The notes under the pieces are model-generated. The model was not told where the DNA came from. It saw only the letters and a program-made list of their open reading frames with translations, and made no database searches. From a virus (taxonomy: Duplodnaviria > Heunggongvirae > Uroviricota > Caudoviricetes), in IMG/VR virus record IMGVR_UViG_3300017705_000602: a stretch of DNA of 64,000 bases. The stretch is one strand, 5' to 3'. Of the stretch, positions 2,076 through 60,970 are shown piece by piece. Position 1 is the stretch's first letter. Each line of letters opens with the position of its first letter. The position numbers and the translations under genes were made by a program.

Positions 2076-3869
2076 ATGTCATTAGTTAAATTATCACTTG
2101 CATTGTTCAACGTAGTGCCAGAAAGCACAAAACCGCCAGCAAAGTCTGCGCATGTAGACCTTGACAATGGCATAGTAATTTCAAAAGAAGCAAGATATGC
2201 TAAGGCTGATATCGTTGCGTTCCTGAAACAAAAGAAACTGTCGGGCGAAGATCTAAACAAGACATGGCACAAAACATGGGCCGAAGTCAAGTCAAGAGAA
2301 AACTCGCACGATGTTGTCCAAGCAGTCATGGGGTTCATTAACGGACTCGGTGCAAAGCTGGACAAAGAAATTCGTTTACCGAACGAAACAATCGGCATTG
2401 ATGATCTAGATTTGCGATTGCAGACTGTGGTTGCAGTGCCAGTTGATGAAATCAACGACCGTGCTTTGCAAATGTTACAATCTGGCATGGCACTAAAAAC
2501 ACAAACAATACACGATTTGTTTGAGATATTGTCTGCTACAGGTTATCAGTTTACTGGCGACGAAGATATACGCAACAAAGAAGCCGTTGTTATACTTGCT
2601 GATACTCATGGTATCTATCCAAAAGAGCCAGTTGAGGCTCTACGCTATGCAGTATACAAAGCTACCGATTCGGCCATGCTGATCAAGAGTGCGGGTGCAG
2701 TAGAAGCAATCAAGGCGTCTTCATTTGATGCAACAGATGTATTCAAAGACGTAGGCGAGACTCGAATGTCCGAAGTGTTCAATCGCTTCAAGCCATTGTT
2801 TCTTGCATTCAAAGGCAAGTCTGCTAAGTCACGTTCGTCAGTTAACCGTATTGCAAAGCTGAGCAAAACACATCACAAGCCAATGCCTGTGAATGCCTTG
2901 CAAGAAGTTACTGCTCGTAGACTGGTGGACACTGAATTACACTGGCTGTCCAATGCAACTGTGTTTGCACTGTTCAAGGCATTGTCTGCTTGTCATACAC
3001 GCATGAATGGTCGCACAGTGTTTGCATACCACATACGTAACGGTAAAGGCTGGTACAAGACAGAATCGTGCAAAGCGTCTTCGGATGACTTACAGCACAA
3101 CTTTGATCTAATAGTGAATGAACTAAAAGGTCGTGTGAACACCGAAGGTAAAAAGATCTTTATACCGGAAGGTATTGAATTTGCCCTGCCTACATCCGAA
3201 AAGATGTTTGTTGGCAATATTCCAACTGGTACCAAGTTCACATCCGATGGTATTGCCGCTGGCATATATTGGAGAAACGAATGGGGTGCAACCGATCTCG
3301 ATTTGTCTACTCTGGACGTCCGTGGTACAAAAACTGGCTGGAACTCTTTTTATACCAGCCAACACGGCGAAATTGCATACTCGGGTGATATAACCGATGC
3401 ATACAACGGCGCAGTCGAATACATGAATATTCAGTCAGGTATAACCGAACCGGTGTTGTTGCTTAACAATGTGTACTCAGGTAACGAAGATTGCGAATAC
3501 AAGGTTGTTGTGGGTCAAGGTACCGATATTACAAAATCGTACATGATGGATCCTAATAGTGTATGGGTAGAAGCAATGTCCGCATCGGTGAAACGCGAAA
3601 CCATAGTCGGATTGTTTTTACCGGAGACTGGTAACCGAGCTTCGTTTGTGATGCTTAACACTGCTATCGGCAATGCGAATGCGTCTGCAGGCAATATACA
3701 CTCTACTCAATTCAACCGTGCGTTGGTTGAGCAGTACAGCAATCAATTTTCGTTAAATGAATTGTTAGAATATGTAGGTTTTGAGTTGACACCATCGCAG
3801 GATGATGCTACAATAGACTTATCGTTAGACAACTTGGATCGTGATACATTTGTATCGTTATTCAGTTAA
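2076..3869 (+). CDS. 597-aa protein: helical (possibly TROVE/Ro-like) N-terminal region plus C-terminal TerD-like domain
   Basis: C-terminal W...DLDLS...GWN...YSGDITDAYNGAVEY fits TerD-family DLDLS/SGD motifs; the Ro/TROVE likeness of the N-terminus is inference. Confidence 0.6.
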   Translation: MSLVKLSLALFNVVPESTKPPAKSAHVDLDNGIVISKEARYAKADIVAFLKQKKLSGEDLNKTWHKTWAEVKSRENSHDVVQAVMGFINGLGAKLDKEIRLPNETIGIDDLDLRLQTVVAVPVDEINDRALQMLQSGMALKTQTIHDLFEILSATGYQFTGDEDIRNKEAVVILADTHGIYPKEPVEALRYAVYKATDSAMLIKSAGAVEAIKASSFDATDVFKDVGETRMSEVFNRFKPLFLAFKGKSAKSRSSVNRIAKLSKTHHKPMPVNALQEVTARRLVDTELHWLSNATVFALFKALSACHTRMNGRTVFAYHIRNGKGWYKTESCKASSDDLQHNFDLIVNELKGRVNTEGKKIFIPEGIEFALPTSEKMFVGNIPTGTKFTSDGIAAGIYWRNEWGATDLDLSTLDVRGTKTGWNSFYTSQHGEIAYSGDITDAYNGAVEYMNIQSGITEPVLLLNNVYSGNEDCEYKVVVGQGTDITKSYMMDPNSVWVEAMSASVKRETIVGLFLPETGNRASFVMLNTAIGNANASAGNIHSTQFNRALVEQYSNQFSLNELLEYVGFELTPSQDDATIDLSLDNLDRDTFVSLFS

Positions 3870-3875
3870 TAGTTA

Positions 3876-3966
3876 TGCGGTGAAAGCGCCGGGCTGATAA
3901 ACCGGAGAAGCTGAAAGGAATAATACAAGAACAAATGCTTGTACCTTGCGCATGTCGCACACCGCA
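3876..3966 (+). ncRNA. putative structured RNA with tRNA-Ile(GAU)-like anticodon loop
   Basis: Closing stem TGCGGTG(3876-82)/CACCGCA(3960-66); hairpin CCGG-G-CTGATAA-A-CCGG; hairpin TACAAG/CTTGTA. Confidence 0.55.
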
Positions 3967-3984
3967 GTTGTTAGGAAGTATGCA

Positions 3985-4206
3985 ATGACAAAGCCGTTCA
4001 AAGTAAAAGTTAAAGATCAAGACGAGTTCGAATCATGCGTGTTTGGTGCCGACGATTTACTCGAACAGTGGCCAGCACTGCTTACCGAAGGCGCAGAAGT
4101 AATACAAAGCGGAAGCATGTATTACTTGTGCGATGCGAAACAAGGTATCATATCCGACTCGGCTTTCTTTAGCAAAAACGAAATGCAATACTTAGAAAAG
4201 ATTTAA
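3985..4206 (+). CDS. small acidic hypothetical protein
   Basis: SD AGGA then ATG at 3985; lies between the two RNA elements. Confidence 0.65.
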   Translation: MTKPFKVKVKDQDEFESCVFGADDLLEQWPALLTEGAEVIQSGSMYYLCDAKQGIISDSAFFSKNEMQYLEKI

Positions 4207-4212
4207 AAGTTT

Positions 4213-4464
4213 TGGGCAAAAGTGGTTCCTATAAAAAATTATTGGAAATGAATACTACTCGCCCACCCAGTTTTGACATAGAGTGTTCCTATAAAAAATC
4301 ATTCGGGCTAAAAACCCGAAACCAGCAAAATACACTCCGTCAACTATTTTTAGGCACAAGCAGTTCCTATAACATACTACGAATATATATACTGCTCGCC
4401 TACTTATTTGGGCACATAAGGTTCCTATTACAGTCTTGAAAACTACTATCATACCTTTCGCCCA
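4213..4464 (+). ncRNA. tandem array of four structured RNA units, each carrying an anticodon-like loop
   Basis: Units 4213-4265, 4273-4343, 4351-4402, 4409-4464. Each has a 5-bp outer stem, AnA/C internal loop, 5-6-bp inner stem with compensatory changes, invariant GTTCCTAT and an inner 7-nt YT-NNN-AA loop. Confidence 0.75.
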
Positions 4465-4514
4465 CCCAACTCAGAAATGCTAGCTTTCGCTAGCTTGAAA
4501 CACTAAGTAAATAC

Positions 4515-4751
4515 AAAGGTTGTCTCGCTTATATTTTTGGTTGATGTGTAACGTTATATACCAGTATCTCTGTAACGTTAATCAGTTTTGTAGCATCTGT
4601 AAAGCCGAATTAAGCTACTGTTACAAGAGGAGCTCCCAGGTAACAGATAATTGGCTTAAACCTGCGAGTTAGGATAGAATTAAGTTTCACGGCGTGCTCC
4701 CTGCCTAGACAGTCGCTTATACAGGCGTGATACTGTTATGAGACAACCTTT
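4515..4751 (+). ncRNA. large multi-branched, probably pseudoknotted ncRNA (~237 nt)
   Basis: 12-bp closing stem AAAGGTTGTCTC/GAGACAACCTTT, nested stems, complementary loops, no ORF; TAAATA at 4508-4513. Confidence 0.7.
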
Positions 4752-4783
4752 TTATTTTTTTGGTAATACTATACGGAGATAAA

Positions 4784-5068
4784 ATGACCATTAAACCTTT
4801 ACACGATTACGTAGTAGTCGAAGCAAAACAAAAACAAGTTTCGAAAGTTATCCATGTTGCTGGCGATAGCAAAGGTGACACAGGAACAGTTATCGCAGTT
4901 GGCCCCGGTGAGTTGTTACCATCAGGTGAACGCGGAGAGATGTCTCTTAAAGCAGGAGACGAGATTATCTTTGCAAACGATGTTATTCGTGAAGATAAAC
5001 AAGACGACGGTTCTATCCAATACTGGATGAGAATTGTTAATGTTATGGGTATCCTAAGAGAATCGTAA
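4784..5068 (+). CDS. groES: co-chaperonin GroES
   Basis: IKPLHDYVVVE...GTVIAVGPG...LKAGDEIIF, typical Cpn10 motifs; SD GGAG. Confidence 0.9.
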   Translation: MTIKPLHDYVVVEAKQKQVSKVIHVAGDSKGDTGTVIAVGPGELLPSGERGEMSLKAGDEIIFANDVIREDKQDDGSIQYWMRIVNVMGILRES

Positions 5069-19025: not shown

Positions 19026-19190
19026 TGTGGATAAAGTTATCCACACCCTGTGGAAAAGCTGTGGATATCATTGTGGATAAGCTGTGGATAACTTTATTCA
19101 CACCCTGTGGATAACGGTGTGGAAAACCTGTGGATAACCTTGGGGTCAGGGCTGTGGATAAGGCTGTGGATAAGTCAAAAGTTATCCACA
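19026..19190. promoter_or_regulatory. cluster of 13 DnaA boxes
   Basis: Perfect TTATCCACA/TGTGGATAA at 19026, 19037, 19072, 19083, 19106, 19129, 19153, 19165, 19182; near-matches at 19049, 19060, 19094, 19118. Confidence 0.9.
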
Positions 19191-34897: not shown

Positions 34898-35136
34898 TTG
34901 ACATAACACACAAACACTGTATAATGTATGTAACACAATTTAAAGATTTATTAGTGCTGGGTACAAGTTTTCATGTTGTTCCTTTTAGTTAGCACCAATT
35001 GTTGTTAGGTCATGTACCCAGCACTAATAGATTTTAAAGAATACTACCGGCAAGTGCTCTTGCCAATTGTGTCTCCTGATAGCGAGTTGGCTATCATCCT
35101 AACTGTTAGGGGTCCTTCGGGGCCCCGCCTCCTTTT
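34898..35136 (+). ncRNA. promoter plus ~200-nt small RNA antisense to the shared early leader/RBS
   Basis: TTGACA-16-TATAAT; 17-bp stem 34949-65/35013-29; TGTGTCTCCT and TCCTAACTGT flank a hairpin; ends in GGGGTCC-TTCG-GGGCCCC hairpin. Confidence 0.7.
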
Positions 35137-44641: not shown

Positions 44642-45560
44642 TTGAACTTTCAGCAAGTTCAATATATCTTTGTTTATTTTTACGAAGCCGATGTTCGAGG
44701 TGACACTTGATTGCGCACACATCGGCTATATCAACTTCTGCCCAGTGTTCTATAACTGACATTATCTTTTCCATTCGCAAACTATTGTCGTGTATGTTGT
44801 CATACGAATGATCAACAAAATCATCGAACATGTCAAACCCTAAATTTCTTAAATGCTGAACCACGCCAGGCGCAGACACAACTATCGGTACATGATATTT
44901 GTCAAAAGCTTTCCACGACTTTTCAGTTGGGAAAATGATATCCTCGTGGAACAATGATTCTGTTACAATAGAAAACATAGTTTCCTGCCATATGTGTGCT
45001 GGCAAGCTGTCAAGTTCGCTCAGTATATTGGTGCTCGGTGTATCTCCGAATGCAGTGTCTAGTTTAATCGAACGTTCGGTTTCGGGCTGGAAATGCTTAG
45101 GATTGTAGCTGTACAAAGCAGTATTGGCAATTCCAGTGTCTTCCAAAAACTCTACAATTTGTTTGCGATGCGGTTTAGGAAAGTTGTTCAGTGTTAAAAA
45201 ATGACGCGATACTGTCGGTGTAAACTCAACATCGTTTACCCTTGAATTGTAGTACTCTTCTATAGTTCCGTTAAAGTAGTGCGTGTTCTTCCATTTAAAC
45301 TTTTCAATTGGTGTTATCCAGTGTATGTTGTCAGTTGATACTCCGGCTATATCACAGCATTCCGATAAAAACTGAAATACCGGCAACGGATAATTACGAT
45401 GCCGGGTATATCGATGCAAATCGCATGGCTCAAGCGATGAATCAAAAACTACTGGTTTGTTCTCAGCCAACAGTTTGGTAACAGGAGAATGCAACGGAGT
45501 ATGGTCGCTAGTAAACAACCTTTCCACTTGCCAAGTAAATCTTAATTTAATTAAGTGCAT
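44604..45560 (-). CDS. GT10-like (fucosyltransferase-fold) putative glycosyltransferase
   Basis: FLTLNN..KPHR...FSIVTES...FPTEKSWK...P.VV...G.V..LR.LGFDMF...DHSYD. Confidence 0.6.
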   Translation of the reverse strand: MHLIKLRFTWQVERLFTSDHTPLHSPVTKLLAENKPVVFDSSLEPCDLHRYTRHRNYPLPVFQFLSECCDIAGVSTDNIHWITPIEKFKWKNTHYFNGTIEEYYNSRVNDVEFTPTVSRHFLTLNNFPKPHRKQIVEFLEDTGIANTALYSYNPKHFQPETERSIKLDTAFGDTPSTNILSELDSLPAHIWQETMFSIVTESLFHEDIIFPTEKSWKAFDKYHVPIVVSAPGVVQHLRNLGFDMFDDFVDHSYDNIHDNSLRMEKIMSVIEHWAEVDIADVCAIKCHLEHRLRKNKQRYIELAESSIKERDCFLSSLC

Positions 45561-46452
45561 TCTTCCAAAACTCGATTGTCATGTCTAAGCCAGTGTCTAA
45601 ATCAATTAGTGGTTCCCAACCGATTGTGCTTGTTATTTTATCGTTAGTGCTGTTCAAGTAATAAATCTCGCCTGCTCTTTCTGGCTTGGTATCCCAGTTA
45701 ATATCGCCCTGCCATCCCAGTTTTTTAGCACATATTTCGGCTAATTTTTCGATCGATAGTGCATTGTTGGGGCCAACACAAAAGGTCTCGTTTTTAACTG
45801 CGCTAACGTTGCTTAATATTGCAATATACGCATTTATAAGATCGCTAATGTGCAGGAAATTGCGATACGGTTTTGCATACCCAAGGTTAACAGTATCACC
45901 TTTTAACATTTGAGTAATGATCTGCTCAACAACAAAAAAGTCATTATCGGTGCGTCCGTATGTGTTTGTTTGTCTCAGTATGCAGTACGGTAAGTTGTAC
46001 GCACGTGATGCGTACTCTAGATATTTTTCACAGCCTAGTTTTGCAACTGCGTATGGTGCATTAGGATGCTGTATGGTAGTTTCGTCAAACGGTGCGTGAT
46101 CAAACGGTTCGTTGTTTTTAATCTTGTCCGATATTGGTTGCCAGCCGTAAGTTTCCATAGTCGACGAAAACAAAAATAATTTTAGATTAGGTGCTTCTCT
46201 GGCACTCTCAACTAGATTTACTGTACCGGTATAGTTAACGTCTGAGAACAATGCTTGTTGGTAAAAAGAATGCTCTACTTCAGTTAATGCTGCCAGGTGA
46301 ATTATCACATCTGGATTAGCAGATTTCACGCACTGTCTGGTTGCATCGTGGTCTCTTAAGTCGCAATCGAATAGCACAATTTCGTGAGATGATAAACGTT
46401 GTATCAAGTGTTGTCCTATAAAGCCGGACGAGCCAGTTATTAGTATTTTCAT
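45547..46452 (-). CDS. NAD-dependent nucleotide-sugar epimerase/dehydratase (extended SDR)
   Basis: TGSSGFIG, IHLAA, SST, YAVAK. Confidence 0.9.
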   Translation of the reverse strand: MKILITGSSGFIGQHLIQRLSSHEIVLFDCDLRDHDATRQCVKSANPDVIIHLAALTEVEHSFYQQALFSDVNYTGTVNLVESAREAPNLKLFLFSSTMETYGWQPISDKIKNNEPFDHAPFDETTIQHPNAPYAVAKLGCEKYLEYASRAYNLPYCILRQTNTYGRTDNDFFVVEQIITQMLKGDTVNLGYAKPYRNFLHISDLINAYIAILSNVSAVKNETFCVGPNNALSIEKLAEICAKKLGWQGDINWDTKPERAGEIYYLNSTNDKITSTIGWEPLIDLDTGLDMTIEFWKNALN

Positions 46453-46453
46453 A

Positions 46454-46909
46454 TTATCCTTCGTATGCACATAAAAGTAAATGTGTGCGTGGTGTGTTTC
46501 CTAAATTAAATGCGCTGTGTTCTAGTCGTGTATTAGCAATGTAAAATTTGCCAACTTCGAAGTGATAAAGATTATCACCAAACACTAAAAAGCTCTTGTC
46601 GTTTGTGTTAACAGGAACATGTACCACATACATTTCGTCGTGGTGTTTGCCATATGCCTGTCCTGGCCAGCAAGTGGTTATTGCAACGTTGTAATTACCT
46701 AGAGCAACACCGTGCTTCTTTATTTGCGAGTCGACGTACATGACCATGTCGTGTAGGGTAAACCCGGCTAGTTCTGCATTGACTTGATAAAACCCGCCGT
46801 CGATTAATTTTTGTCTGGCTTCGTCGTCTTGTCGTTTGTATGTATTGTCAATTGCTTTTAACTGTGACATAAACCGATCGGGCAATTCGAACTCAGTTAC
46901 TTGTTGCAT
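46454..46909 (-). CDS. 2OG-Fe(II) oxygenase, Asp/Asn beta-hydroxylase-like
   Basis: PGQAYGKHHD...VHVPVNTN...NTRLEHSAFNLGNTPRTHLL. Confidence 0.8.
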   Translation of the reverse strand: MQQVTEFELPDRFMSQLKAIDNTYKRQDDEARQKLIDGGFYQVNAELAGFTLHDMVMYVDSQIKKHGVALGNYNVAITTCWPGQAYGKHHDEMYVVHVPVNTNDKSFLVFGDNLYHFEVGKFYIANTRLEHSAFNLGNTPRTHLLLCAYEG

Positions 46910-47264
46910 TTACACCTACCAAAAACAAGCAATAGGCACCGGTGTTGGCTATACCTACATTGTTTGCAAAAACTAATTTACTTTCGTTTCCGTGACTGAT
47001 TGCTTTACCGTCATGCACAATATAACAATTTCCGTCGCCGAACACTGGCATAATAATAGTGTCTTGCTCAAAGAATAAACATTGCTTTGAGCACATATAG
47101 ACTAACTTGTATTCGGTACATTCGGCAATAAACGGAAATTCATGGATATCGTAAGGCTTCACTGTAAAGCGATCACTCTTTATGAGCGAGACATTTTCTT
47201 TAAACAGAGATAACCTTAACGACTCGTGTTTGTTTGCAACATTAACGATTGCGTGTATTGCCAT
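46893..47264 (-). CDS. hypothetical, possibly degenerate double-stranded beta-helix protein
   Basis: IIMPV...NVGIANTG resembles the neighbouring oxygenase but lacks HxD. Confidence 0.5.
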   Translation of the reverse strand: MAIHAIVNVANKHESLRLSLFKENVSLIKSDRFTVKPYDIHEFPFIAECTEYKLVYMCSKQCLFFEQDTIIMPVFGDGNCYIVHDGKAISHGNESKLVFANNVGIANTGAYCLFLVGVNATSN

Positions 47265-48459
47265 AATGTATTACTTTCACTCCAGTAATCTCAGGATGTT
47301 TTCTCCACGGGTCAACAATTACTGATCCTGGAACTGGATCAATTACTGCGTTTAATATATCTTTATCGTCATAAGTGATTGCCGAAGAATGCGCCATTAA
47401 AAAAGTGTGCGGTAAAGTTTCATCGTATGGTTCGTTATCGCGCAGATCGTCGCAGTTGTCGTCGTCGACATAATGAACTTGTGTTCCAAGTTGCTTTACG
47501 TATTCGCCTGTTAGTATACTAATAGAGCCTGCAGAATATTCAACACCCGGCTTATACGATTTGCCTACTATAACAACAGGCAATCCGTATGATACAAGTT
47601 CTTTTGCCATGTTCTTTGCTTGCTGTTCTCGTGCAACCATGATAGCATCAAACAAGTCGTAGCCTAGATCCAGTCGGTTAGCCATTGAACGCAATGCTAT
47701 ATTATCGCGTGGATGACAAGCACCTCCATCGCCTAGCCCGGCTGTCATGTACTTAGGTCCGTTGATGCGGAATGTTGATTTAGCAAGTGCATCAGTTACA
47801 ACATCGACATTCATGTTTCCGTTGCGTTCTGCTACATCTTGCATCATGTTAACTAATGCTAGTTTAGAACTGATCCAGGTATTATAGAATATCTTAATGG
47901 CTTCTGCTTCGTCCCATGTGCCTACTTCGATGCGCGGATCATTTTGCATGATCGGCTTATAAAAATCAATCAGCTCTTGCGCATCACCGGTCAGCGAACC
48001 GTCTTCGGTTCCGATAATAATCATTTCGGGATTGACCATGTCGTATTCAACTGTGCCCATGGCTATTAAATAAGGGTTGTAAACGAATCTAAACGAGTCG
48101 AAATGCTTTTGAAAAATGCGTCTCACTGTACCAGGCAACACGGTACTGATAAGCACCACTAGCTGATCTTTGGTGGTATACTTTGCAATTTCCGACAACA
48201 CTGTATCGGCAATTGAATAGTCAAAATCTTTTGGTTCGAGATGGCAAGTAGGATCTTTACCATCATATCTTTCGTCATGCGGAGTTGGAACAGCTACAAA
48301 AATAATATCTCTATCAGTGACACATTCTTCAATGGTCATTGCTTGCAAAAAGCGAGAATTAACGATAGCAGTGTCGTATCCGATTACATTGTAGTGCTTT
48401 GACATTTGATAAGCACACGGTTCGCCTAGTTTCCCTATGCCAATAAATCCAACGTTCAT
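47242..48459 (-). CDS. ugd: UDP-glucose/GDP-mannose 6-dehydrogenase family
   Basis: GIGKLG, AVPTP, STVLPGT, EAIKIFYN, GDGGACHPRD, GKSYKP. Confidence 0.88.
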   Translation of the reverse strand: MNVGFIGIGKLGEPCAYQMSKHYNVIGYDTAIVNSRFLQAMTIEECVTDRDIIFVAVPTPHDERYDGKDPTCHLEPKDFDYSIADTVLSEIAKYTTKDQLVVLISTVLPGTVRRIFQKHFDSFRFVYNPYLIAMGTVEYDMVNPEMIIIGTEDGSLTGDAQELIDFYKPIMQNDPRIEVGTWDEAEAIKIFYNTWISSKLALVNMMQDVAERNGNMNVDVVTDALAKSTFRINGPKYMTAGLGDGGACHPRDNIALRSMANRLDLGYDLFDAIMVAREQQAKNMAKELVSYGLPVVIVGKSYKPGVEYSAGSISILTGEYVKQLGTQVHYVDDDNCDDLRDNEPYDETLPHTFLMAHSSAITYDDKDILNAVIDPVPGSVIVDPWRKHPEITGVKVIHYGNTRNR

Positions 48460-51430: not shown

Positions 51431-52515
51431 GCAAATTTACTCAACAGATCGACTAGTGCTTTCTTGTAATCTTTCGAGATACAGTGCTGTCGGTTATGTT
51501 GTGTTATTGCTTGCACATGCGCTTGTTTATTATCTAGATCGTTTAGTGAAAAGTTGTCTACTTGAGATACAACCGAATCGATTCGATCGGACAATCCAAT
51601 TAAGCTGTCGTATTCTTCGTCAAACAATATGTCAAATGATTTATAACCTTGCTGTTTTAAAAATCCAATCAGCCCTGGGCTACCTACCATCATAAAAGGA
51701 TGCATAGACAGTATTGCCTTGAATGTCTTTTCAGTTACAAACAACGAACCCGGTGTGTTAATCGATTCTGTTACAATTGAAAATGCAGTGTTATTGTACA
51801 ATTCAACATCGTCGAGGTACTGGTTCTGCAGACACTCTGTTAAAGTTAAGTCTATCATTACCGGATCGCTAAATGTAATTGCATGCAATTCAGCTTTTAC
51901 TTTTTCCGATGTGTTACAAGTATCTATTTCGTTTGCAACTAACTGGTCGCAATATCTATTTTTTAAATAACTTATATATCCGTCGTTGCGATTTTGCATT
52001 TTACGGAACAGCATGGTTCTGTGTACTTTTGCAGTGCCGTTATACGAAAGAAACTTTTTAGCAGGATTAACCGATACTGTTTCTCTACCTTTGATTTTGT
52101 GAGTTGCAATCATGTCGAAATAGAAAAACGGCTCAATTGTTAAATTGCTAGGACAGTTACGATGTGCAATTTCTCCGCACTCGCCAGTTATTATTAAAAT
52201 TGATTTGTTATGGATACCAAGGCGGTTCAATTGGAATATTTCATTCTCAATCATGCTATATGATACTGGTTCTCTCGGATAAAATAAAACCAGCTTATAC
52301 TGACCAGAAAGTATTTTATCTACTTCGCAATCAAGCAACATGTCGACTAATCTACCGGTATCAAAAATATTAATTAATTCGACAATTAATAAACCAGGTT
52401 TATCAGTTGCTTGAGTATAATTTATATCATAAAAATCAAGGTAGTAAAATACCGAATCGTTATCTCGATAAGAAACATTTTGTAAGTCATTGCTTTTGCT
52501 ACGAATTAGATTCAC
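51427..52515 (-). CDS. GT10-like putative glycosyltransferase
   Basis: KFLSYNG..KVHR...FSIVTES...FVTEKTFK...HPFMMVG...GYKSF...DEEYD. Confidence 0.6.
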   Translation of the reverse strand: MNLIRSKSNDLQNVSYRDNDSVFYYLDFYDINYTQATDKPGLLIVELINIFDTGRLVDMLLDCEVDKILSGQYKLVLFYPREPVSYSMIENEIFQLNRLGIHNKSILIITGECGEIAHRNCPSNLTIEPFFYFDMIATHKIKGRETVSVNPAKKFLSYNGTAKVHRTMLFRKMQNRNDGYISYLKNRYCDQLVANEIDTCNTSEKVKAELHAITFSDPVMIDLTLTECLQNQYLDDVELYNNTAFSIVTESINTPGSLFVTEKTFKAILSMHPFMMVGSPGLIGFLKQQGYKSFDILFDEEYDSLIGLSDRIDSVVSQVDNFSLNDLDNKQAHVQAITQHNRQHCISKDYKKALVDLLSKFA

Positions 52516-53776
52516 GGTCTATTAACTCTTTGAATTCTGGAAAGATATCTGAAAAAGACTCTCTTCTTATTTGATCTAGCTCGTCTGTGTAGTTTAAAAA
52601 CAGTTGCCATTTTGCAGGGTCGTGTTCTTTTGTTCGATACAGTTGTTCTATTTCGTGCTTTTGATGACTAGACATATTTTCGCATTCGTTTATTTTGTCA
52701 ATCAGTTGCGACCTTATCGATAAAGGTATAACATCCGGCGACATAAAATCAGGCCACATTACAAAATTGTGAGCTATTTCAATTGAACTGTCGTACTCGT
52801 TCCAATAGTCGTGGAACTCTTTAAGATACGGAAAGTTATATACGCTGACTGTTTGCAGTATCTTTATACGCACAGTATCGGTAGCAAGACACTGATCAAC
52901 TGTTTTTAAAACTTTATCCCACTTGGTTGGGTGTCTAATATAATAGTTTCGATCTTCGATATCATCGATGCTGGCACGAATTTCAACTTCCTTAAACTGA
53001 TCCCACAGTTCAAGCGCGATATCGGGGATAAGCGTCATGTTCAAGCTATACCAAATTTTAATATTTTTAGCAAATCCTTTTTCGATTAGCTTTTCCAAGA
53101 AACGCCAGTGCTGTTTGATTAACGTGGGCTCGCCGCCATTAATGTATAAACTTTCTAAGTTTTCGCATTTGTCTAGGATATCATCGTACACATTTTCATC
53201 TTCGCACCAATCAAATGTCGACCAGTCCAGCCCTCGATACTGAGGAATAACTTTTGCACCTTCCCACTCACCGTCCTGAAGTTTTTCGTAATCTGTTTTC
53301 CATCGGTTTGAGCTTGCAGGGTTGCAAGTGCGACATTTAACATTGCATACATTGCCAAGTCTAAACTCAACAAAGCGTAAATCAGTTTTCTTTAAACTGC
53401 CGTCTTGGTTGGTGTTGTCTGCGGCTTCCGCTAACGAATAGTTAGGATATTCTCTTTGCTCTAGCAGACGTTTACTGTCTAAACCTTTGTCTTCGCGATT
53501 GTAACATCGCATGCATGCTTCGGGTTTTTCTCCTGCTAGCATTTGCTTACGAACTGTTTTAAAGTAATCGCTGTCATGTATTTCTTTAATAGTGTGCTTG
53601 CCAAGGAATTTAATTTCTTGCTGGTCAGCACCTACAATCGATTCTTTAGTATCTTTACTGCTACTAGCATGATTGGTCATATCAGCTTCGCAACAAAGAG
53701 TAACATGCCCCATAGGGTGTGTTGCTAAATGAATCCATGGTAATACACAAAATGTTTTCTTAGGATCGTTGCTCAT
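52499..53776 (-). CDS. twitch/SPASM-domain radical SAM protein
   Basis: CVLPWIH...LCC...ACMRC; CNVKCRTC; GGEP. Confidence 0.9.
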   Translation of the reverse strand: MSNDPKKTFCVLPWIHLATHPMGHVTLCCEADMTNHASSSKDTKESIVGADQQEIKFLGKHTIKEIHDSDYFKTVRKQMLAGEKPEACMRCYNREDKGLDSKRLLEQREYPNYSLAEAADNTNQDGSLKKTDLRFVEFRLGNVCNVKCRTCNPASSNRWKTDYEKLQDGEWEGAKVIPQYRGLDWSTFDWCEDENVYDDILDKCENLESLYINGGEPTLIKQHWRFLEKLIEKGFAKNIKIWYSLNMTLIPDIALELWDQFKEVEIRASIDDIEDRNYYIRHPTKWDKVLKTVDQCLATDTVRIKILQTVSVYNFPYLKEFHDYWNEYDSSIEIAHNFVMWPDFMSPDVIPLSIRSQLIDKINECENMSSHQKHEIEQLYRTKEHDPAKWQLFLNYTDELDQIRRESFSDIFPEFKELIDRESNS

Positions 53777-55101
53777 TTTATCTCCTGATTCCACCAGCTA
53801 ATTGCCTGAGTGTTAACTGCTAAAATTTCTTCCATTGTGATTGGTTGCTTTCTTATTCGTTCTAGTTCGACCAAGCGATGCCGACCTTCTCGAAAGCCTT
53901 CTACATAGTTATCATACTGTTCTTCGAACACTGGGCGCTTTTTCATTTCGTGTAATGTGTCTATGTACACTTGTGTTTTGCGCGTAACACGTGGTTCCAT
54001 ATACTCGAGCAGTTCGTCGATAATATTGTCTAACACATCGCGTGGCATAGACATGGGCGACATCAGCACGGTGCTGTCAAAAGAAAATGTTATTTTTAAA
54101 TATGTTTTTACATCAAGCTCTTGAGCAAGGTCAAACATAGACTTTAGTGAAAACAGTCCTGGCATGGTCAGTGTTACATCGAACACTATTGCATCTTCGC
54201 CAAACTGCTCTTTCAAGAAAAGACCTTGTTTAAAATTGTCAAGCCATTTATCCCAGTTGAGACCACTGCGTATGTATTCACCTATAGCGCCACTTCCGTC
54301 AATACTGGCACATAAATTTACTCGCTTAAAGTGCGGAAGCAATTCATACAACTGCGAGTCTTTGCGACTGAGACGATTAAGATTGGTGTTGTATCTCACA
54401 ACTACATTTTTAGAATGTCCACTGTCGACCAGTTGTTGCATTACAGTCCAGTGCTTTTCCCACATTAATGGTTCGCCGCCCACCCAATATAATTCTTCGA
54501 CAGTTTCGTTATCTACTGCTTGCTGTAATTCGTCTTCGAGCACATTCTCCTGGAAGTCTCGGATAGGTATACGTAGCTCGGGAGCCATCCACTTGTCAAA
54601 TTTAGGATCCCACATGCCATGCTTTCGTTTTTCGGCTTCCCAGCTTGAGCTCAGTTGTTCTCCGCACATGCGACACTTGAAATCACAACGATTACTTAAA
54701 CGATAATCAAAGCTGATAGGGTCAAGTGTAGTGTGGCCATCTGCAGAAGTACTTTCGTAAATCTTGTCAATGTATTGAGGAAACAGTGTCTGCGTGAAGT
54801 AGTTTCGGTAAGTGTGCAAATTTAAAACTTGGTTGTTGCAAACTTCGCACTGGGGTATTTTTTCGCCTGCTATGATTCGGCGGCGAATATCTTTCATGTA
54901 TTCTGAATTCCAGTGCTCGCTTAATGTTGCCGGATCGAATACATCTGTTTTTGTGCCTGAGTCAGCATCAATGTACTGTCGTTGAAAAGACGCATCCTCC
55001 CTGCTTGCACAACACAATCGTCTTTCGCCTTGCGGGCTAACATACGTGTGTGTCCAAGGTGCAGTACAAAAAACATCAGGTATTGTGTTTGGTTTCTCCA
55101 T
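53773..55101 (-). CDS. twitch/SPASM-domain radical SAM protein
   Basis: CTAPWTH...LCC...CEVC; CDFKCRMC; GGEP. Confidence 0.9.
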   Translation of the reverse strand: MEKPNTIPDVFCTAPWTHTYVSPQGERRLCCASREDASFQRQYIDADSGTKTDVFDPATLSEHWNSEYMKDIRRRIIAGEKIPQCEVCNNQVLNLHTYRNYFTQTLFPQYIDKIYESTSADGHTTLDPISFDYRLSNRCDFKCRMCGEQLSSSWEAEKRKHGMWDPKFDKWMAPELRIPIRDFQENVLEDELQQAVDNETVEELYWVGGEPLMWEKHWTVMQQLVDSGHSKNVVVRYNTNLNRLSRKDSQLYELLPHFKRVNLCASIDGSGAIGEYIRSGLNWDKWLDNFKQGLFLKEQFGEDAIVFDVTLTMPGLFSLKSMFDLAQELDVKTYLKITFSFDSTVLMSPMSMPRDVLDNIIDELLEYMEPRVTRKTQVYIDTLHEMKKRPVFEEQYDNYVEGFREGRHRLVELERIRKQPITMEEILAVNTQAISWWNQEIK

Positions 55102-56287
55102 AAATGTATTCTTTTAACTCCGGAAACGTTGATGCAAAATCTTCGTTTCTAAATTCGTCTAAGTTGTGTGTTATATCATTAAACGCAATAAGCTCTTGTG
55201 ATAATCCTGGCGTGTTAACATATTCGCGTATTTCGTTAAGCGATCGTTTAGCTGATTCGTACTTGAATTGATGTGCATTATACATTTTTTCAATACGTTC
55301 AATTAATACTTGCTTGGCAGCCAGTGGCAAGTTTTTAATGTTGTAGTGAGATGGATGATACAGCATGTTGAAATAAATTTCAAGATTGTTATCTTCGGCC
55401 CATAGTACAAACTCGCAGATGTCAAGCACGTTCAGTATATTTACTGTATGGCAAACTTGTAGCACAATATTATCGAACTCGCGAAATCTCATGATGTTGC
55501 TTTCGACAGTTTGCCATTTCGAACCGTGTCGTTGATATTCAAACTTTTTGCCTAGTGCATCAATACTGAGCATGATTTCCACGCGCTTGAATTTGGTCCA
55601 TACTTCGTGCAAGATTTCGTCCGATGGTAAAATCGTACCGTTGGTGTTGTAATGTATTGCAATGTCAGACACATCAGCTTGCTCAGTAAGCAGTTTCAAA
55701 AAGCGATAATGCTCTTTGATCAACAAAGGATCGCCACCTGCAAAGTCTATCTGAACAACATTGTCAACATACTGCAACAAGTCTGCCCAGAACTCTGGGT
55801 AGTCTTCTGCCCATCGACTGTTTGCAAGATAATAGTCAATCGTGTCTTCGTCAGCTAGCTTTAATGCCTTTGCATCTTTTGCCCACTTGATACTGTTCTC
55901 GTATGTGCATATACGGCACTTTAAATTGCAAATCGACCCTAGTTTTAAGTCGAAATAGATGGGATTTTCCTCACTAACTACCTCGTAGCTATGCTCTGGT
56001 GCATAGAATCGGTCTAGGTCGTTAATACGCTTGCTTTTCATGCCACCGTCTTCTAAATCCCAGCAGTATCGGCATTCGTCGGGTCGTTCGTTGTTGAGAA
56101 ACTTTGTTCGCAACGATTGCATGTTTTTAGAGTTCCATACATCGCCGACTGTTACGCCTTCTGATATATGTGTCTTGCCATCGTCGCGTTCAATTTTGCC
56201 CTGATACAAACAGCATGCCCTAAAAGTTCCATCTGTTTCGGCACTAAGGTGTACCCAAGGCAGAACACAGAAATTACTTTTAGACAT
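55076..56287 (-). CDS. twitch/SPASM-domain radical SAM protein
   Basis: CVLPWVH...ACC...CRYC; CNLKCRIC; GGDP. Confidence 0.9.
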   Translation of the reverse strand: MSKSNFCVLPWVHLSAETDGTFRACCLYQGKIERDDGKTHISEGVTVGDVWNSKNMQSLRTKFLNNERPDECRYCWDLEDGGMKSKRINDLDRFYAPEHSYEVVSEENPIYFDLKLGSICNLKCRICTYENSIKWAKDAKALKLADEDTIDYYLANSRWAEDYPEFWADLLQYVDNVVQIDFAGGDPLLIKEHYRFLKLLTEQADVSDIAIHYNTNGTILPSDEILHEVWTKFKRVEIMLSIDALGKKFEYQRHGSKWQTVESNIMRFREFDNIVLQVCHTVNILNVLDICEFVLWAEDNNLEIYFNMLYHPSHYNIKNLPLAAKQVLIERIEKMYNAHQFKYESAKRSLNEIREYVNTPGLSQELIAFNDITHNLDEFRNEDFASTFPELKEYIYGETKHNT

Positions 56288-57494
56288 TCTGATCCTTGTA
56301 TTTTAACATTGGCTCAAGTTCCGGGAATGCTGACAAAAAGTCTTCTTTGCGTATATCGTCAAGTGCATTGTTGCGTTCAAAGAACTCCGGGATCAAATGT
56401 GTGTCGTCTCTACTGTTCATGTAGTCAACAACACTCATTAATCGATTGCTTTCTCTGTATTCCATTGGAATTTGCTGTAGCATACGTTCGTACTTTTTAG
56501 TTATACGCTCTTTGATTTCGGGAGGTAAAATAGTTAAACTCAAATGAGCAGGATAATGCAATATGTTGATATTAATTGCTTCCCAGTGAATATACCCTTT
56601 GTTTAACCAATCTAAGTAAAAGTCAGGTAGATGCCAGCCGTTATAAAGAGATACAGTTGCCGCAACAAAAAAAGAAACGTGCGGACATTTTTCTTGTAGT
56701 TGTCTTCGGTTTTCTTCTATCTTGGCCCAGTTGGTTCCGTGTCGCATATATTCAGCACGAGGGCCAGAATCATCTAAACTTGCACCTACATTTACATCTG
56801 GAAACTTTGACCAGAGATCAAATACATCGCGGCCTTTGAAACGCATTTTACTAAAGTTAGTGTTGTACACCAAGCGTACATCTGTTTTACCTTTAGCAAT
56901 TAAGTATTCGAGTATTTCGTAATGTTCAACCGCAACTAAGGGCTCGCCGCCCGCAAAGTATATTTCTTCCACATGCGGCAGTATCTTGTCTAGGTTGGCC
57001 CACAGTTCTTGTTCTGTTTCGAAAGGCTTTTGTATTCTTTCGCCATCTGCTGAACCGTATAAAATAACTTGATCATCGTACCAAAGTGAACTCAACGACG
57101 GCCCACAACTGCGACATTTGAAGTTACAAATATTACTGAATCGAATATCCATGTAACGTATCTTCATTTCAGGATGATGCCCATCTTCCGCTGTTTTGCG
57201 TGTCGACGTCATGCGATGCCCGAACTTTTGATTCATGTCTTGTCGCATACTAAATGAGCCATGCTCTTCTAGTTTGTAACAGCGTTCGCATGTTTTACTT
57301 GGCTGTCCTTTTAGCATGTTTTTTCGTAGCTTGCGCATGCGCTCACCGTTCCATACATCTTCCATTGACTCAGTTTTTACGTTGCCAAATGGATCTTCGG
57401 ATGGTGAAGTACAGCAAGGGTATATGTTACCATTTGGCCACATGTGCATGTGAATCCACGGCGCCATACAAAAATGCTTGTTTGGTTCTTCCAT
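56280..57494 (-). CDS. twitch/SPASM-domain radical SAM protein
   Basis: CMAPWIH...PCC...CERC; CNFKCRSC; GGEP. Confidence 0.9.
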   Translation of the reverse strand: MEEPNKHFCMAPWIHMHMWPNGNIYPCCTSPSEDPFGNVKTESMEDVWNGERMRKLRKNMLKGQPSKTCERCYKLEEHGSFSMRQDMNQKFGHRMTSTRKTAEDGHHPEMKIRYMDIRFSNICNFKCRSCGPSLSSLWYDDQVILYGSADGERIQKPFETEQELWANLDKILPHVEEIYFAGGEPLVAVEHYEILEYLIAKGKTDVRLVYNTNFSKMRFKGRDVFDLWSKFPDVNVGASLDDSGPRAEYMRHGTNWAKIEENRRQLQEKCPHVSFFVAATVSLYNGWHLPDFYLDWLNKGYIHWEAININILHYPAHLSLTILPPEIKERITKKYERMLQQIPMEYRESNRLMSVVDYMNSRDDTHLIPEFFERNNALDDIRKEDFLSAFPELEPMLKYKDQNV

Positions 57495-58258
57495 TATAAT
57501 CCTTTTAAGAATGCTGTAACAGCTTGTTCAGCAAACATACGTTGATATTTGTTATGCGGATGCATGCCTTCAGGAATGTCATCGCCGAGGTCTCTACAAA
57601 ACTCTCGCAAGCCCTGTATGATATTTTCATCGTTAATATCGGCACCATTGTATTCCCACCAAGTGCCCCGGTCTACTAAATCGTGCAAGTATTCAGTCTC
57701 TGGGTAAGTTGCAGTTAACAGCTCGTGGTCCCATGCTTTAAAGTTCATGAGCGGAATACTGTTTGCTTTACAAAAGTTTTGCAGTAACAACACCGAATGC
57801 ATCGAATCAATGTACTGATTAACATTGCTGTGACAATGCCCGAAATACATTTCCATTAACTGATCAATGTGCTTGTTTTCAAACGTCCAATGTCCGTAGC
57901 CCCCGGTGCTTTTTAACCAAGCAGAGTATTTAGTATCTCCATCGCATAAAAAATTAGTTACTTTATGGTCGTGTGTCTTCTCAACTTTCTTTACTTCGGA
58001 AAACATCGGATGAGTCTGATCAAAGTGAAATTCAAATCGTGTAGGTTCGCTCCATCCGACCACAAGCACTGTATCTTCGAAACTAGTTTGTTTGCTCAGT
58101 TGATACAGTGCATTTCTAGCTATCATAGTGTTACTTGAACCCATTTCTGCGCAAACAGTAACGTTATACGCAGATTTGTCTAAATGGTATGGCCAAGCAA
58201 GATATTCATCGATGCAATGAAACGTATATGAGTCTCCTGCACAAATTACATTTTTCAC
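57494..58258 (-). CDS. SGNH/GDSL-like hydrolase or acyltransferase
   Basis: GDSYT, GSSN, GWS..R.E, C-terminal HP. Confidence 0.7.
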   Translation of the reverse strand: MKNVICAGDSYTFHCIDEYLAWPYHLDKSAYNVTVCAEMGSSNTMIARNALYQLSKQTSFEDTVLVVGWSEPTRFEFHFDQTHPMFSEVKKVEKTHDHKVTNFLCDGDTKYSAWLKSTGGYGHWTFENKHIDQLMEMYFGHCHSNVNQYIDSMHSVLLLQNFCKANSIPLMNFKAWDHELLTATYPETEYLHDLVDRGTWWEYNGADINDENIIQGLREFCRDLGDDIPEGMHPHNKYQRMFAEQAVTAFLKGL

Positions 58259-59919
58259 TTTTCTTGTTCTCTTAAAATCTCTTCGATTAGCTCGGCACGT
58301 TCCCAGTCGGTATTCATTTGCTCAACTGAAACATGCTTGTATGCTTTCATGAGATCCTCGTCGGTCATTGTGGATAACTCTACGATAGTATATTTCTTTT
58401 CTTTATACTCTCTTGCACCAGGATTGGTGTTTTGGTTTTTCCACTCGTCAGTCTTTGCACGCTTTTCGAGCTCTCTGCGTTCTAGTGTTTGCTTGCTTGA
58501 ATCACCATCGTACAATTGCACCACTGGTATTGATTCTTCGTAAGGCAAACTGTCAAACCATTCGGCAAGCTCAGGAAATGCATAATTGAAGTCTTTCTCT
58601 CTGCGTTCGTCGTACTGCATGTAAAACGACTTGAAGTCTTTATGACGAGATTCAATTGAACTTGTGTATCTGTGCGGTTCGTCAACAGAACGTAAATAGT
58701 CAATCAGTCGATCGACTCCGTCAATTTCCATGTCGTGCATGATACCAGAGTCACGATTTGCAATAAGCCATTTCTCGATGTGATCTGCACGTTCATGACG
58801 CAGTTCTTCAGGTAATGTACCAGGCGATTGGAAACTTGGAAAACGTAAAATGTTAACTGAGTACACGCCAAACATGTGACCGTATTTGCGCTTGAGTAAA
58901 TTACAGTAGTCCATAAAATCAGTAATTGAGTACAGACACAAGCTGTTTATAGTCATCATAACATGAAACTCTTTTACGTTACCTTCTTGTAACAATCGAT
59001 CTGTTGCATGCTTCCAGTAATCCCATTCAAGCCCATCACGAATGTACTCTGCTTGTTTGCCTGTTGCTTCACACGAAGAATAAACAATAAAGTCCTTAAA
59101 GTAATGCGAAGTTTCAATAAACTTCTCCATTGTTTTACCTTTATGACCCATGTTGCTGTTTACAGCAAACTTCATGTCTAAGTCTTGTCCGTTTTCTTTC
59201 CACCAGTCGCACAGTTTCCAGTACTCTGGACTCATGGCAGCTTCGCCACCGGTGATACGCAATTGCTGTAACGATTGACTTAACTGTGGCCACCAGTCCC
59301 AGAAAGCATCAGTATACGGATTCGATTCGTTCTTTCTGAACTGTTTAGTCCAGCCGCCGTCTTGCTGAAATGCGCGTGCGCCATCGCTGTGCAAGTTTTG
59401 ATATGCACCGTTCTGACGTATATCTTTTTGCCACGTAGTCGAAAAGCTTGCATTACAGTACGAGCATGCAAAGTTACAGTTGGCATCAAACGCAATTTCA
59501 AGTGTTTTAAGGTCGACGTCTTCTGTTTCAGCATAAACATCACGGCATTCTTCGAGTTCTTCGTCAGTGTATATAACACTTTTAAAAACGCGATCAGAAA
59601 CTTTCTCTGGACCAAGGTCTTCAATTTTCCAGCAATACTCACATTCTTTTGGCCGTTCACCGATTAACATCTGCTTACGTACCATTTTCTTGTATGTAGT
59701 ATTGTGAAGCATAGACGGATTCTTTTTCAAGTCGTCAAATGTTTCGCCACTGTCAACATCAACAATTTTGTGAGCAGGTGGATGGTGACAGCTGGCAGTT
59801 GTTCCATTGTTTAGCCATACAGTGGCATTGTACCACTTGGCACCACAGAACGATGACGATATAGGGTCAATTGCTCTGTCTCGGTATTCTCTGTAAGATT
59901 CGTCTTGGCGTTTTGACAT
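58255..59919 (-). CDS. radical SAM protein, CxAKW...CHHP subtype
   Basis: CGAKW...SCHHP...CEYC; CNFACSYC; TGGE. Confidence 0.9.
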   Translation of the reverse strand: MSKRQDESYREYRDRAIDPISSSFCGAKWYNATVWLNNGTTASCHHPPAHKIVDVDSGETFDDLKKNPSMLHNTTYKKMVRKQMLIGERPKECEYCWKIEDLGPEKVSDRVFKSVIYTDEELEECRDVYAETEDVDLKTLEIAFDANCNFACSYCNASFSTTWQKDIRQNGAYQNLHSDGARAFQQDGGWTKQFRKNESNPYTDAFWDWWPQLSQSLQQLRITGGEAAMSPEYWKLCDWWKENGQDLDMKFAVNSNMGHKGKTMEKFIETSHYFKDFIVYSSCEATGKQAEYIRDGLEWDYWKHATDRLLQEGNVKEFHVMMTINSLCLYSITDFMDYCNLLKRKYGHMFGVYSVNILRFPSFQSPGTLPEELRHERADHIEKWLIANRDSGIMHDMEIDGVDRLIDYLRSVDEPHRYTSSIESRHKDFKSFYMQYDERREKDFNYAFPELAEWFDSLPYEESIPVVQLYDGDSSKQTLERRELEKRAKTDEWKNQNTNPGAREYKEKKYTIVELSTMTDEDLMKAYKHVSVEQMNTDWERAELIEEILREQEK

Positions 59920-59920
59920 A

Positions 59921-60970
59921 TTATAACCTAAACAGTCCCTTTTGTTGAATTTTCAGTTGATTGTGATCACGGAACCATTCAAGGTTTTCGCGATTGTGTT
60001 CGATGTCAGGCAACATTTCGTTGTACATTGCGCGTCTTTCTTTTTCCGACATGTCTGCTACTTTTTTAATAGCATCGCATATCACTTGATATCTTTCCAT
60101 GCTGTACGATGGCATCATGTCGTAATCTAAGTCAAAGTACTTATGAAATGTTCTAAACCCACAAGCACGCAAGTGATTAACAATACCAGTGTCGCCTAAT
60201 ACAATAAACGGACGCATACCTATCATGGGCTTAAATATCTTCTCAGACATAAACATATTAGACTCTACTGTGGTTTCGGTAACTACAACAAGAAAGGTGT
60301 TGTTCCAGATATCCATATTGCCTAGTGAGTATATGTCATGCGGTATCGGTGATTCATTAAGTGCTTCTTGTTCGCCTTGTTCTACGTACTGATCGGAAAC
60401 TTCTGGCACAGTCATTGGTGCTGCCTCAAATGCCAACGGGTACTTTACGTGCGGATTGTGAGTGTAAAACTGATCACCTAATGTTACTATTCCCTGCTTT
60501 TCAAGGCCGTTATGTAGTATTTGGTTGACAAGTTTAAGGCGGTGTTCGTGTGGATTTCGGTTGTAAGATAAGAAAGCGTGCTTAAACGAGTCAGGTCGTA
60601 CTTCGTCGACGGTGTACGGTTTGTGATTTTTGGTTGCATAACCCCAGAAGCTAAAATATCCGCGACCTGTTGTATTGCCGAGGTAATATACGTTTTTAGC
60701 TTTGGCTTCGTAGTCGGCAATACGATTTCCTGGCACAGGTTCGACGGTCGATAAGATGAAGACATTGTCATATTCCTTTTCGTATTTAGGGCTGTTAAGA
60801 TTCTTGTCAGGCGGAATCATCCACTCCCATTGAGTACTTATAAGCAGATTTTTCGCACGAGGAAACCGCGTATTAATCTGCTTGGTAATGTAGTAAATTG
60901 TTTCGTTGTAATCTTTTGCTGTTTGCCAATGCTCGGGTAATCCCCCGTCGACTATATCAATCATTGTCAA
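59921..60970 (-). CDS. GT10-like putative glycosyltransferase
   Basis: FLSYNRNPHEHR...VVVTET...FMSEKIFKP...RPFIVLG...GFRTF. Confidence 0.6.
   Translation of the reverse strand: MTMIDIVDGGLPEHWQTAKDYNETIYYITKQINTRFPRAKNLLISTQWEWMIPPDKNLNSPKYEKEYDNVFILSTVEPVPGNRIADYEAKAKNVYYLGNTTGRGYFSFWGYATKNHKPYTVDEVRPDSFKHAFLSYNRNPHEHRLKLVNQILHNGLEKQGIVTLGDQFYTHNPHVKYPLAFEAAPMTVPEVSDQYVEQGEQEALNESPIPHDIYSLGNMDIWNNTFLVVVTETTVESNMFMSEKIFKPMIGMRPFIVLGDTGIVNHLRACGFRTFHKYFDLDYDMMPSYSMERYQVICDAIKKVADMSEKERRAMYNEMLPDIEHNRENLEWFRDHNQLKIQQKGLFRL

Follow-up and report, generated by a model that had tools for sequence, protein, structure and literature searches.

The window, that is, the whole stretch of 64,000 nucleotides analysed here, is phage-like marine DNA of an uncultured giant phage in which most open reading frames (ORFs) belong to no family. 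We found the stretch in 20 marine or seawater DNA runs from 18 studies, with no RNA run containing it among the 22 runs listed, and contigs from four DNA runs held pieces identical to it and no variants. A structured RNA of about 245 nt sits here within a 577-nt gap that extends from a small ORF (3946-4206) to a GroES-like gene (4784-5068). The gene 3' of groES was seen solely in this phage, on a 319,623-bp contig. The region contains the following features.

2076-3869, plus strand: gene for a 597-amino-acid protein with a TerD-like domain at its C terminus; its family is large and uncharacterised (predicted model, fold match)
3880-3975 (approximate limits), plus strand: third conserved element, directly 3' of the protein gene (alignment A8, four phages)
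3946-4206, plus strand: small ORF, 86 amino acids from TTG (PHROG phrog_25670, E 5.6e-16)
4211-4267, plus strand: hairpin unit 1 (model R1, 56.3 bits, E 3.7e-13; z -3.52)
4271-4345, plus strand: hairpin unit 2, with an inner CGGG/CCCG hairpin (R1, 47.8 bits, E 1e-10; z -4.44)
4349-4404, plus strand: hairpin unit 3 (R1, 58.3 bits, E 1e-13; z -3.82)
4407-4466, plus strand: hairpin unit 4 (R1, 41.9 bits, E 5.4e-9; z -2.32)
4510-4756, plus strand: structured RNA of about 245 nt with eight helices (consensus of alignment A4; model R2)
4747-4759, plus strand: U-run that begins within the 3' strand of the terminal stem P1 and continues past it (read from the sequence)
4773-4776, plus strand: ribosome-binding site of groES, GGAG, outside the RNA fold
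4784-5068, plus strand: GroES-like co-chaperonin gene (Pfam Cpn10, 1.3e-10; PHROG 3188 co-chaperonin GroES, 4.4e-11)

Because blastn of the region against 50,697 phage records returned no match, we sought relatives through the upstream 597-amino-acid protein. This led to one syntenic contig in IMG/VR (L002, 63% protein identity) and, in a metagenome collection, to L248 (79%), L249 and L250 (71%) and L302 (66%), the last of which does not differ from L002 in this stretch. Scanning IMG/VR by way of GroES brought up no relative, an exact match to a 29-mer of the window was absent there, and with two loose patterns chance matches swamped any signal. A specific gapped pattern matched the L002 contig and no other in IMG/VR; a second gapped pattern, searched in genome contigs, gave 25 scattered matches against about 37 that we estimated to be expected by chance, all of them scoring at most 12.2 bits with R2. 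Conservation extends throughout the gap, where 80% of the columns are identical between the window and L002. Alignment A4 comprises the four distinct versions of the RNA, those of the window, L002, L250 and L248, which R2 scored at 238-279 bits (for the window RNA, 263.8 bits on the plus strand and 24.7 on the minus strand). A search of all collected loci with nhmmer and R2 placed the RNA in these four phage versions only, and R2 did not find it in the remaining 81 protein-family loci, in the whole contigs L046 and L003 or in the genome of Synechococcus phage S-CRM01. The window has one copy of it, as does the 104-kb L002 contig. As R2 gave no convincing match beyond the four versions, the RNA is specific to this phage clade, and it is known from four sequences of one clade with conserved gene order.

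The GroES gene is the next gene after the RNA in L002, L250 and L248 as well, and the distance from the end of the RNA to the groES start is 25-38 nt in all four versions. L002 has the same order as the window (protein, small ORF, small RNAs, long RNA, groES) with a homologue of the small ORF at the same position, and by comparison with L002 the true start of this ORF is probably an ATG near 3985. In L248 and L250 the order is protein, small RNAs, long RNA, groES, with no small ORF visible after the protein gene in L248. L248 carries a 180-nt insert with a 56-amino-acid ORF between the hairpin array and the RNA, not between the RNA and groES. This ORF (L248 2388-2558, 3' of the last hairpin unit) is hydrophobic and is absent from the window, L002 and L250.

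When the window was folded alone, the plus strand gave -70.6 kcal/mol and a z of -2.79, with 3 of 200 shuffles as stable, and the opposite strand gave a z of -3.83; support for a fold from the window alone is only modestly above chance. Applied to A4, RNAalifold returned 73 pairs, 24 of them with compensating changes. A refined consensus has 72 pairs. Counted on the same four sequences from which it was derived, it is 96.2% paired over 287 cells, and both partners have changed in 25 of its pairs. None of 500 shuffles matched it in any of five measures, and sliding it by one to three columns left just 38-45% paired. Its elements, all on the plus strand and taken from A4, are given below.

4510-4526 with 4740-4756, plus strand: P1, terminal stem (12-16 bp)
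4532-4537 with 4676-4681, plus strand: P2
4543-4557 with 4571-4583, plus strand: P3, a hairpin
4595-4598 with 4672-4675, plus strand: P2' (ATCT/GGAT)
4610-4615 with 4654-4659, plus strand: P4 (TTAAGC/GCTTAA)
4618-4624 with 4640-4646, plus strand: P5 (CTGTTAC/GTAACAG)
4690-4693 with 4703-4706, plus strand: P6
4708-4718 with 4723-4737, plus strand: P7
4629-4633 (GGAGC) with 4696-4700 (GCTCC), plus strand: candidate loop-loop contact between P5 and P6

P1 is a 16-bp stem that is almost invariant and very stable. P2 and P2' stack across a junction bearing the hairpin P3, and P4 and P5 make up one extended hairpin. P2 reads TATTTT/AGAATT in the window, TTTTCC/GGAAAA in L002, CTTGTC/GACAAG in L250 and TATTCC/GGATTA in L248; P5 has a different sequence in each of the four versions; and both P4 (TTAAGC/GCTTAA versus TTGAAC/GTTCAA in L248) and P7 (CGCTT/AGGCG versus CGTCA/TGACG in L248) covary. 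The GGAG/CUCC pairing (GGAGY/RCUCC), with four invariant pairs and one varying pair, is likely to be a contact between the loops of P5 and P6. Three junction strands, G.AAAGCCG.A, AA.CUGCGA and CAAG.GGAG..CC, are conserved. Comparison of the four versions indicates that the RNA is real and is kept by compensating mutations, in a fold that differs from the one proposed earlier.

The original prediction combined nested helices with two loop-loop pairings in swapped order, and all of the strings that it quoted are present in the window. The terminal arms AAAGGTTGTCTC (4515-4526) and GAGACAACCTTT (4740-4751) lie exactly where it placed them, as do CAGTATC (4562-4568) and GATACTG (4729-4735). CTCTGTAAC starts at 4568 and its partner GTTACAAGAG at 4620; the remaining helical strings start at 4590 (GTAGC) and 4614 (GCTAC), 4629 (GGAGC) and 4696 (GCTCC), 4637 (CAGGT) and 4660 (ACCTG), and 4703 (GCCT) and 4723 (AGGC). 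At C4568 and G4629, two of these helices overlap an adjacent one by a single base. Pairing of the 61 proposed pairs stands at 79.8% over the four sequences, a figure that includes the window itself, which always pairs, and nine of them have changed on both sides, a number reached by 27 of 500 shuffles. The long terminal stem (100% paired) and GGAGC/GCTCC (95%) hold, and the rest are weaker: GTAGC/GCTAC at 85%, CAGTATC/GATACTG at 83%, GCCT/AGGC at 81%, CTCTGTAAC/GTTACAAGAG at 72% and CAGGT/ACCTG at 70%. An A-to-T change in L002 is compensated inside P7 (AGA/TCT) and not inside CAGTATC/GATACTG.

The swapped loop blocks had been taken to imply a complex pseudoknot, alternative conformers or an intermolecular kissing multimer. 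The window does hold the complementarity on which this model was built, between ATCTGT (starting at 4595) and ACAGAT (4643), AAGCC (4602) and GGCTT (4653), and AATT at 4608 and at 4649. ACAGAT is kept in L248 but is missing from L002 and L250, and across the four versions the blocks are unconserved, at 50% paired for ATCTGT/ACAGAT, 75% for AAGCC/GGCTT and 67% for AATT/AATT. Covariation of the loop pairings among homologues upstream of groES, which had been suggested as a check, amounts to one pair changed on both sides, in the AATT/AATT block. The same bases serve the nested helices P2', P4 and P5, which covary and are already present in the minimum-energy and centroid folds of the window; its minimum-energy fold pairs P4 and P5 as in the consensus. 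These data make pairing of the swapped loops, in cis or between molecules, very improbable.

A4 contains 22 G-U cells and 2 A-C cells, so that the pairing of 96.2% on the plus strand would be 88.5% on the minus strand, which favours the plus strand. No reading frame is conserved: in the window and L248 every frame has 3-9 stops, L002 and L250 each have one stop-free frame across the RNA, and the variable columns are distributed 38/37/44 by position modulo three, without three-base periodicity. These results bear on whether the locus might instead be an element acting as DNA, such as a replication origin, a packaging site or a small mobile element with inverted repeats, or else a short gene. 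The imperfect 25-nt terminal inverted repeats of the RNA and the stop-free frames of L002 and L250 would fit such readings. Searched with a 12-nt seed within 300 nt, the window has 29 inverted repeats, mostly palindromes, among which the terminal repeat of the RNA is the second longest. A DNA element or gene is nevertheless scarcely credible, given G-U pairs that are frequent on one strand only (22 versus 2), a single copy in both the window and the 104-kb L002 contig, stops in all frames of the window and L248, and substitutions that lack a three-base period.

Rfam 15 (4,227 models) gave no match at gathering score in the whole window, none at E ≤ 10 for 4508-4760 and none at E ≤ 1 for the versions in L002, L250 and L248, in agreement with the earlier view of a structured RNA outside the known families and unlike tRNA, tmRNA or RNase P. 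ARAGORN found no tRNA or tmRNA gene in the window, Rfam gave no tRNA-clan match in the region, and no RNase P model matched at E ≤ 10. There was likewise no 6S RNA match at E ≤ 10, and the fold is a multi-junction structure of eight helices rather than a single long irregular helix. ROOL, GOLLD, raiA and OLE had no Rfam match, and the proposed intermolecular blocks are unconserved. The RNA does not match YrlA (RF02553), and the neighbouring protein has no Pfam TROVE match at E ≤ 0.1. An RNA thermometer does not fit either, as pairing ends at 4756, 5' of both the GGAG at 4773-4776 and the ATG at 4784. The UUCCUAU-box hairpin family described below was also rejected, as R1 does not score the 245-nt RNA and the RNA has no such box. 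A literature search found no description of the RNA, the hairpin family or the 597-amino-acid protein. On the basis of the four sequences now available, we rate the RNA as a new family of a known general kind, namely a structured leader or a stable phage RNA.

Upstream of the RNA, the hairpin units share a layout of two 5-bp stems separated by an A-rich bulge, then UUCCUAU and a variable loop, and finally the return strands; in unit 1, which folds as predicted on its own, the bulge is AAA and the variable loop is followed by AUA. R1 was built from 69 hairpin units, with unit 2 outside its seed alignment. Across both strands of the 64-kb window it has four matches, all at 4211-4466, and over the protein family 77 of 85 loci yielded 237 matches in total, in every case on the same strand as the protein gene. 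The other eight loci had none; five of these form a single group of nearly identical sequences, and in three the DNA upstream is missing. The 97.7% pairing of the seed units is circular, because the seed pattern required pairing. As an independent check, both stems were found at 154 of 241 GTTCCTAT sites in the family loci versus 260 of 4,820 with shuffled flanks. The loci L005-L127 hold true members of the hairpin family, and L104, L118 and L121 have several units each. On one 211,612-bp IMG/VR contig (L007-L010), many GTTCCTAT...GTTCCTAT pairs about 80 nt apart lie on one strand over about 7 kb and may be a large array of the family. A match to GTTCCTATA in PMC4916379 is an unrelated CRISPR repeat, and the motifs outlined in a preprint on bacterial tRNA mimics differ from those here. 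The element at 3880-3975, common to the window, L002, L248 and L250, has a 7-bp closing stem (TGCGGTG/CACCGCA) that encloses three arms and is followed by ACCA in L248 and L250; RNAalifold found 21 pairs in A8, just one of them compensatory, and Rfam gave no match at E ≤ 10.

The 597-amino-acid protein is the presumed partner of the small hairpin RNAs. It has 1,070 relatives at E ≤ 0.001 among 7,999 scored candidates, none of them with a Pfam domain. We found no family for it in Pfam, PHROG or NCBIfam and no solved relative by sequence, and in Atlas it falls into clusters labelled 'hypothetical protein' only. In its predicted model (pLDDT 82.5), residues 389-550 match TerD (2qz7_B, Z 9.5, rmsd 3.4, 138 aligned; 2kxt, Z 9.1), and Foldseek also retrieved 2kxt (E 1.5e-4). 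The best match of the N-terminal half (residues 1-385) has a Z of 6.4 and covers a helical hairpin only. Ro60/TROVE is not among the fold matches listed for the whole model or for residues 1-385, which is no proof of different folds. Just upstream of this gene, at 1687-2004, the window encodes a 105-amino-acid protein with a WYL_2 domain (Sm-like SH3 barrel; Pfam E 5.1e-14), which may be a further RNA-binding component.

The setting of the protein and its hairpins resembles that of Ro60 (Rsr) with YrlA/YrlB and RtcB (PMC4201824): tandem small RNAs with paired ends adjoin one large protein gene. tRNA-like inserts in some hairpin units align to full-length Rfam YrlA below the 69-bit gathering score (L279, 46.6 bits, E 2.4e-7; S-CRM01, 35.9 bits; L300, 31.1 bits), and in 27 of 80 metagenome loci, which all come from one bacterial lineage with RtcB 74-100% identical, the gene just upstream codes for RtcB. 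The components differ. The 597-amino-acid protein has no Pfam TROVE match and has a TerD-like domain in place of a vWA domain. The hairpins have an AAA bulge and a UUCCUAU box rather than GNCGAA, the motif to which Chen et al. (2014, PMC4201824) assign the Rsr site. The 245-nt RNA itself shows none of the features of a Y RNA. In the RtcB lineage the protein gene follows RtcB and a 108-nt tRNA-like RNA (L274 2690-2797). In Synechococcus phage S-CRM01 (L001) the protein gene, g174, lies inside a tRNA cluster and is flanked by R1-scored units at 2512-2604, 2743-2805, 2811-2876 and 4824-4879; one more unit, seen by eye only, lies at about 2883-2970, and the YrlA-like RNA of 35.9 bits is at 2619-2733. 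These RNAs are unannotated in the record.

Elsewhere in the window, 34940-35038 holds the longest inverted repeat, with 26-nt arms that are 88% complementary and 47 nt apart. At 19026-19190 there are repeated inverted TGTGGATAA / TTATCCACA strings, which we take to resemble DnaA boxes and which could be an origin or DnaA-binding site. On the minus strand, 52499-62366 has five radical SAM genes in a run, three with SPASM, near sugar-nucleotide enzymes at 45547-48459, a block that is metabolically unusual for a phage.

At the 3' end of the RNA, the U-run that had been reported to follow the terminal stem is present, and it is kept as CCTTTTTATTTT in L002 and L250 and as the weaker CCTTTCTATTT in L248. 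As at an intrinsic terminator, TTTTTATTTT comes after GAGACA(A/G)CC in the window, L002 and L250, and a weaker run does so in L248. The stem encloses 213 nt rather than a short loop of 3-8 nt, which is why the terminator scan was silent at the U-run; a possible role for 4747-4759 is that of a 3' end or an attenuation site. The scan for sigma-70 promoters and terminators gave nothing at the ends of the RNA. It also gave no promoter-like site between the RNA and groES, so that groES would depend on read-through. The spacer to groES is partly conserved, with the kept string TTATTTTAACTAA(C/T)GGAG. At the 5' end, TAAATA (4508-4513) had been proposed as a late promoter, a reading that does not stand; the string is not kept in the relatives, and TATAAATA occurs once in 64 kb where 2.5 are expected. 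Directly 5' of P1, L002 and L250 (two of the four versions) have TACAAT, which could be the RNA's own promoter. A motif derived from the string before P1 had 17 one-mismatch matches versus 7.4 expected, with no clear link to gene starts.

The four versions demonstrate conservation, compensating pairs, the strand, the lack of a reading frame and a constant attachment to groES. Since the RNA keeps its 25-38 nt to groES also in the version in which a small ORF comes between it and the upstream RNAs, our best guess, which we hold tentatively, is that it acts in cis as a leader or attenuator of the groES message. At the terminal stem and U-run, 25-38 nt short of the groES start, some of the transcripts would stop or pause, and the conserved core of junction strands and GGAG/CUCC contact would set groES read-through or the lifetime of the message. 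We infer transcription, the 3' end and attenuation from these features, as we do any sensing of temperature, a ligand or a protein. The long, near-invariant and very stable P1 argues against a leader, being unlike a switching helix, as do the ribosome-binding site, which is not occluded, and the place of the RNA as last member of an island of RNA genes, with its ends paired as in stable RNAs. It is also possible that the linkage to groES is mere synteny, as the four sequences come from one clade with conserved gene order.

Several of the same observations fit a free-standing, stable RNA that acts in trans and is transcribed from just before P1 to the U-run, a reading that we consider less likely than not but almost as probable as the leader. 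The RNA lies at the end of the RNA-gene island (the element at 3880-3975 and the four hairpin units at 4211-4466). A long stem joins its two ends, as is seen in stable RNAs such as Y RNAs, the unpaired strands at its junctions have been strongly conserved, it leaves the ribosome-binding site free, and it has a U-run after P1 and, in L002 and L250, TACAAT just before P1. Such an RNA might, with similar reservation on our part, join the TerD-domain protein and the hairpin RNAs, for example in RNA repair or quality control, where it could be a scaffold, a decoy or a mimic of a substrate. Its absence by R2 from the other 81 protein-family loci, L046, L003 and S-CRM01 speaks against this and means that the protein-hairpin system works without the 245-nt RNA. 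The insert in L248 parts the RNA from the hairpin units and not from groES, the RNA has neither a UUCCUAU box nor an R1 match, and groES has no promoter-like site of its own downstream of the RNA. A leader and a free RNA could both hold if termination is partial. The position between RNA genes and an mRNA, together with a compact multi-helix core, invariant unpaired strands and a candidate loop-loop contact, would also suit a self-cleaving or otherwise catalytic RNA that processes a polycistronic RNA between the small RNAs and groES. We judge this most unlikely, as the Rfam ribozyme families had no match at E ≤ 10 and nothing in the data indicates a cleavage site.

Our preferred reading, a cis-acting leader of groES, can be compared with known kinds of RNA. 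Riboswitch and T-box type attenuators are large structured mRNA leaders that end in a terminator. The 245-nt RNA likewise has a conserved multi-helix core of 200-250 nt directly 5' of one gene, its junction strands are invariant, two of its loops are candidates for a contact, and a U-run precedes the ribosome-binding site. Its terminator-like stem, however, closes the whole fold as a 16-bp helix instead of forming a separate hairpin, it has no known competing antiterminator or ligand, and none of the Rfam families matches it. In ROSE and fourU, the RNA thermometers of chaperone genes, a short hairpin covers the ribosome-binding site; the 245-nt RNA is also folded and 5' of a gene of the chaperone system, but the GGAG at 4773-4776 lies outside its fold. 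In some small RNAs, including leader-derived ones, the last helix and the U-tail are a terminator. The 245-nt RNA resembles these in the GC-containing stem and U-run at its 3' end and in the possible -10-like TACAAT of two of the four versions, and differs from them in that its stem encloses 213 nt and a gene lacking a promoter-like site of its own follows within 38 nt.

The system of hairpin RNAs and TerD-domain protein is widespread, with more than 1,000 protein members in bacteria and phages, and resembles a second, unrelated Ro60-Y RNA particle. It is conceivable, although we find it doubtful, that the 245-nt RNA represents a new class of phage RNAs, sensors or scaffolds, and links an RNA-repair particle, made of the TerD-domain protein and the hairpins, to the supply of chaperonin, or that it is a free RNA partner of that particle. 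In the former case the protein or a hairpin RNA would bind to its invariant junction strands, and its fold would control whether transcription continues into groES. The 245-nt RNA is a large, uncatalogued phage RNA whose eight helices, invariant junctions and likely loop-loop contact suggest a specific binding or sensing job. Should it control groES, it would be unusually elaborate for an element that regulates a phage co-chaperonin.
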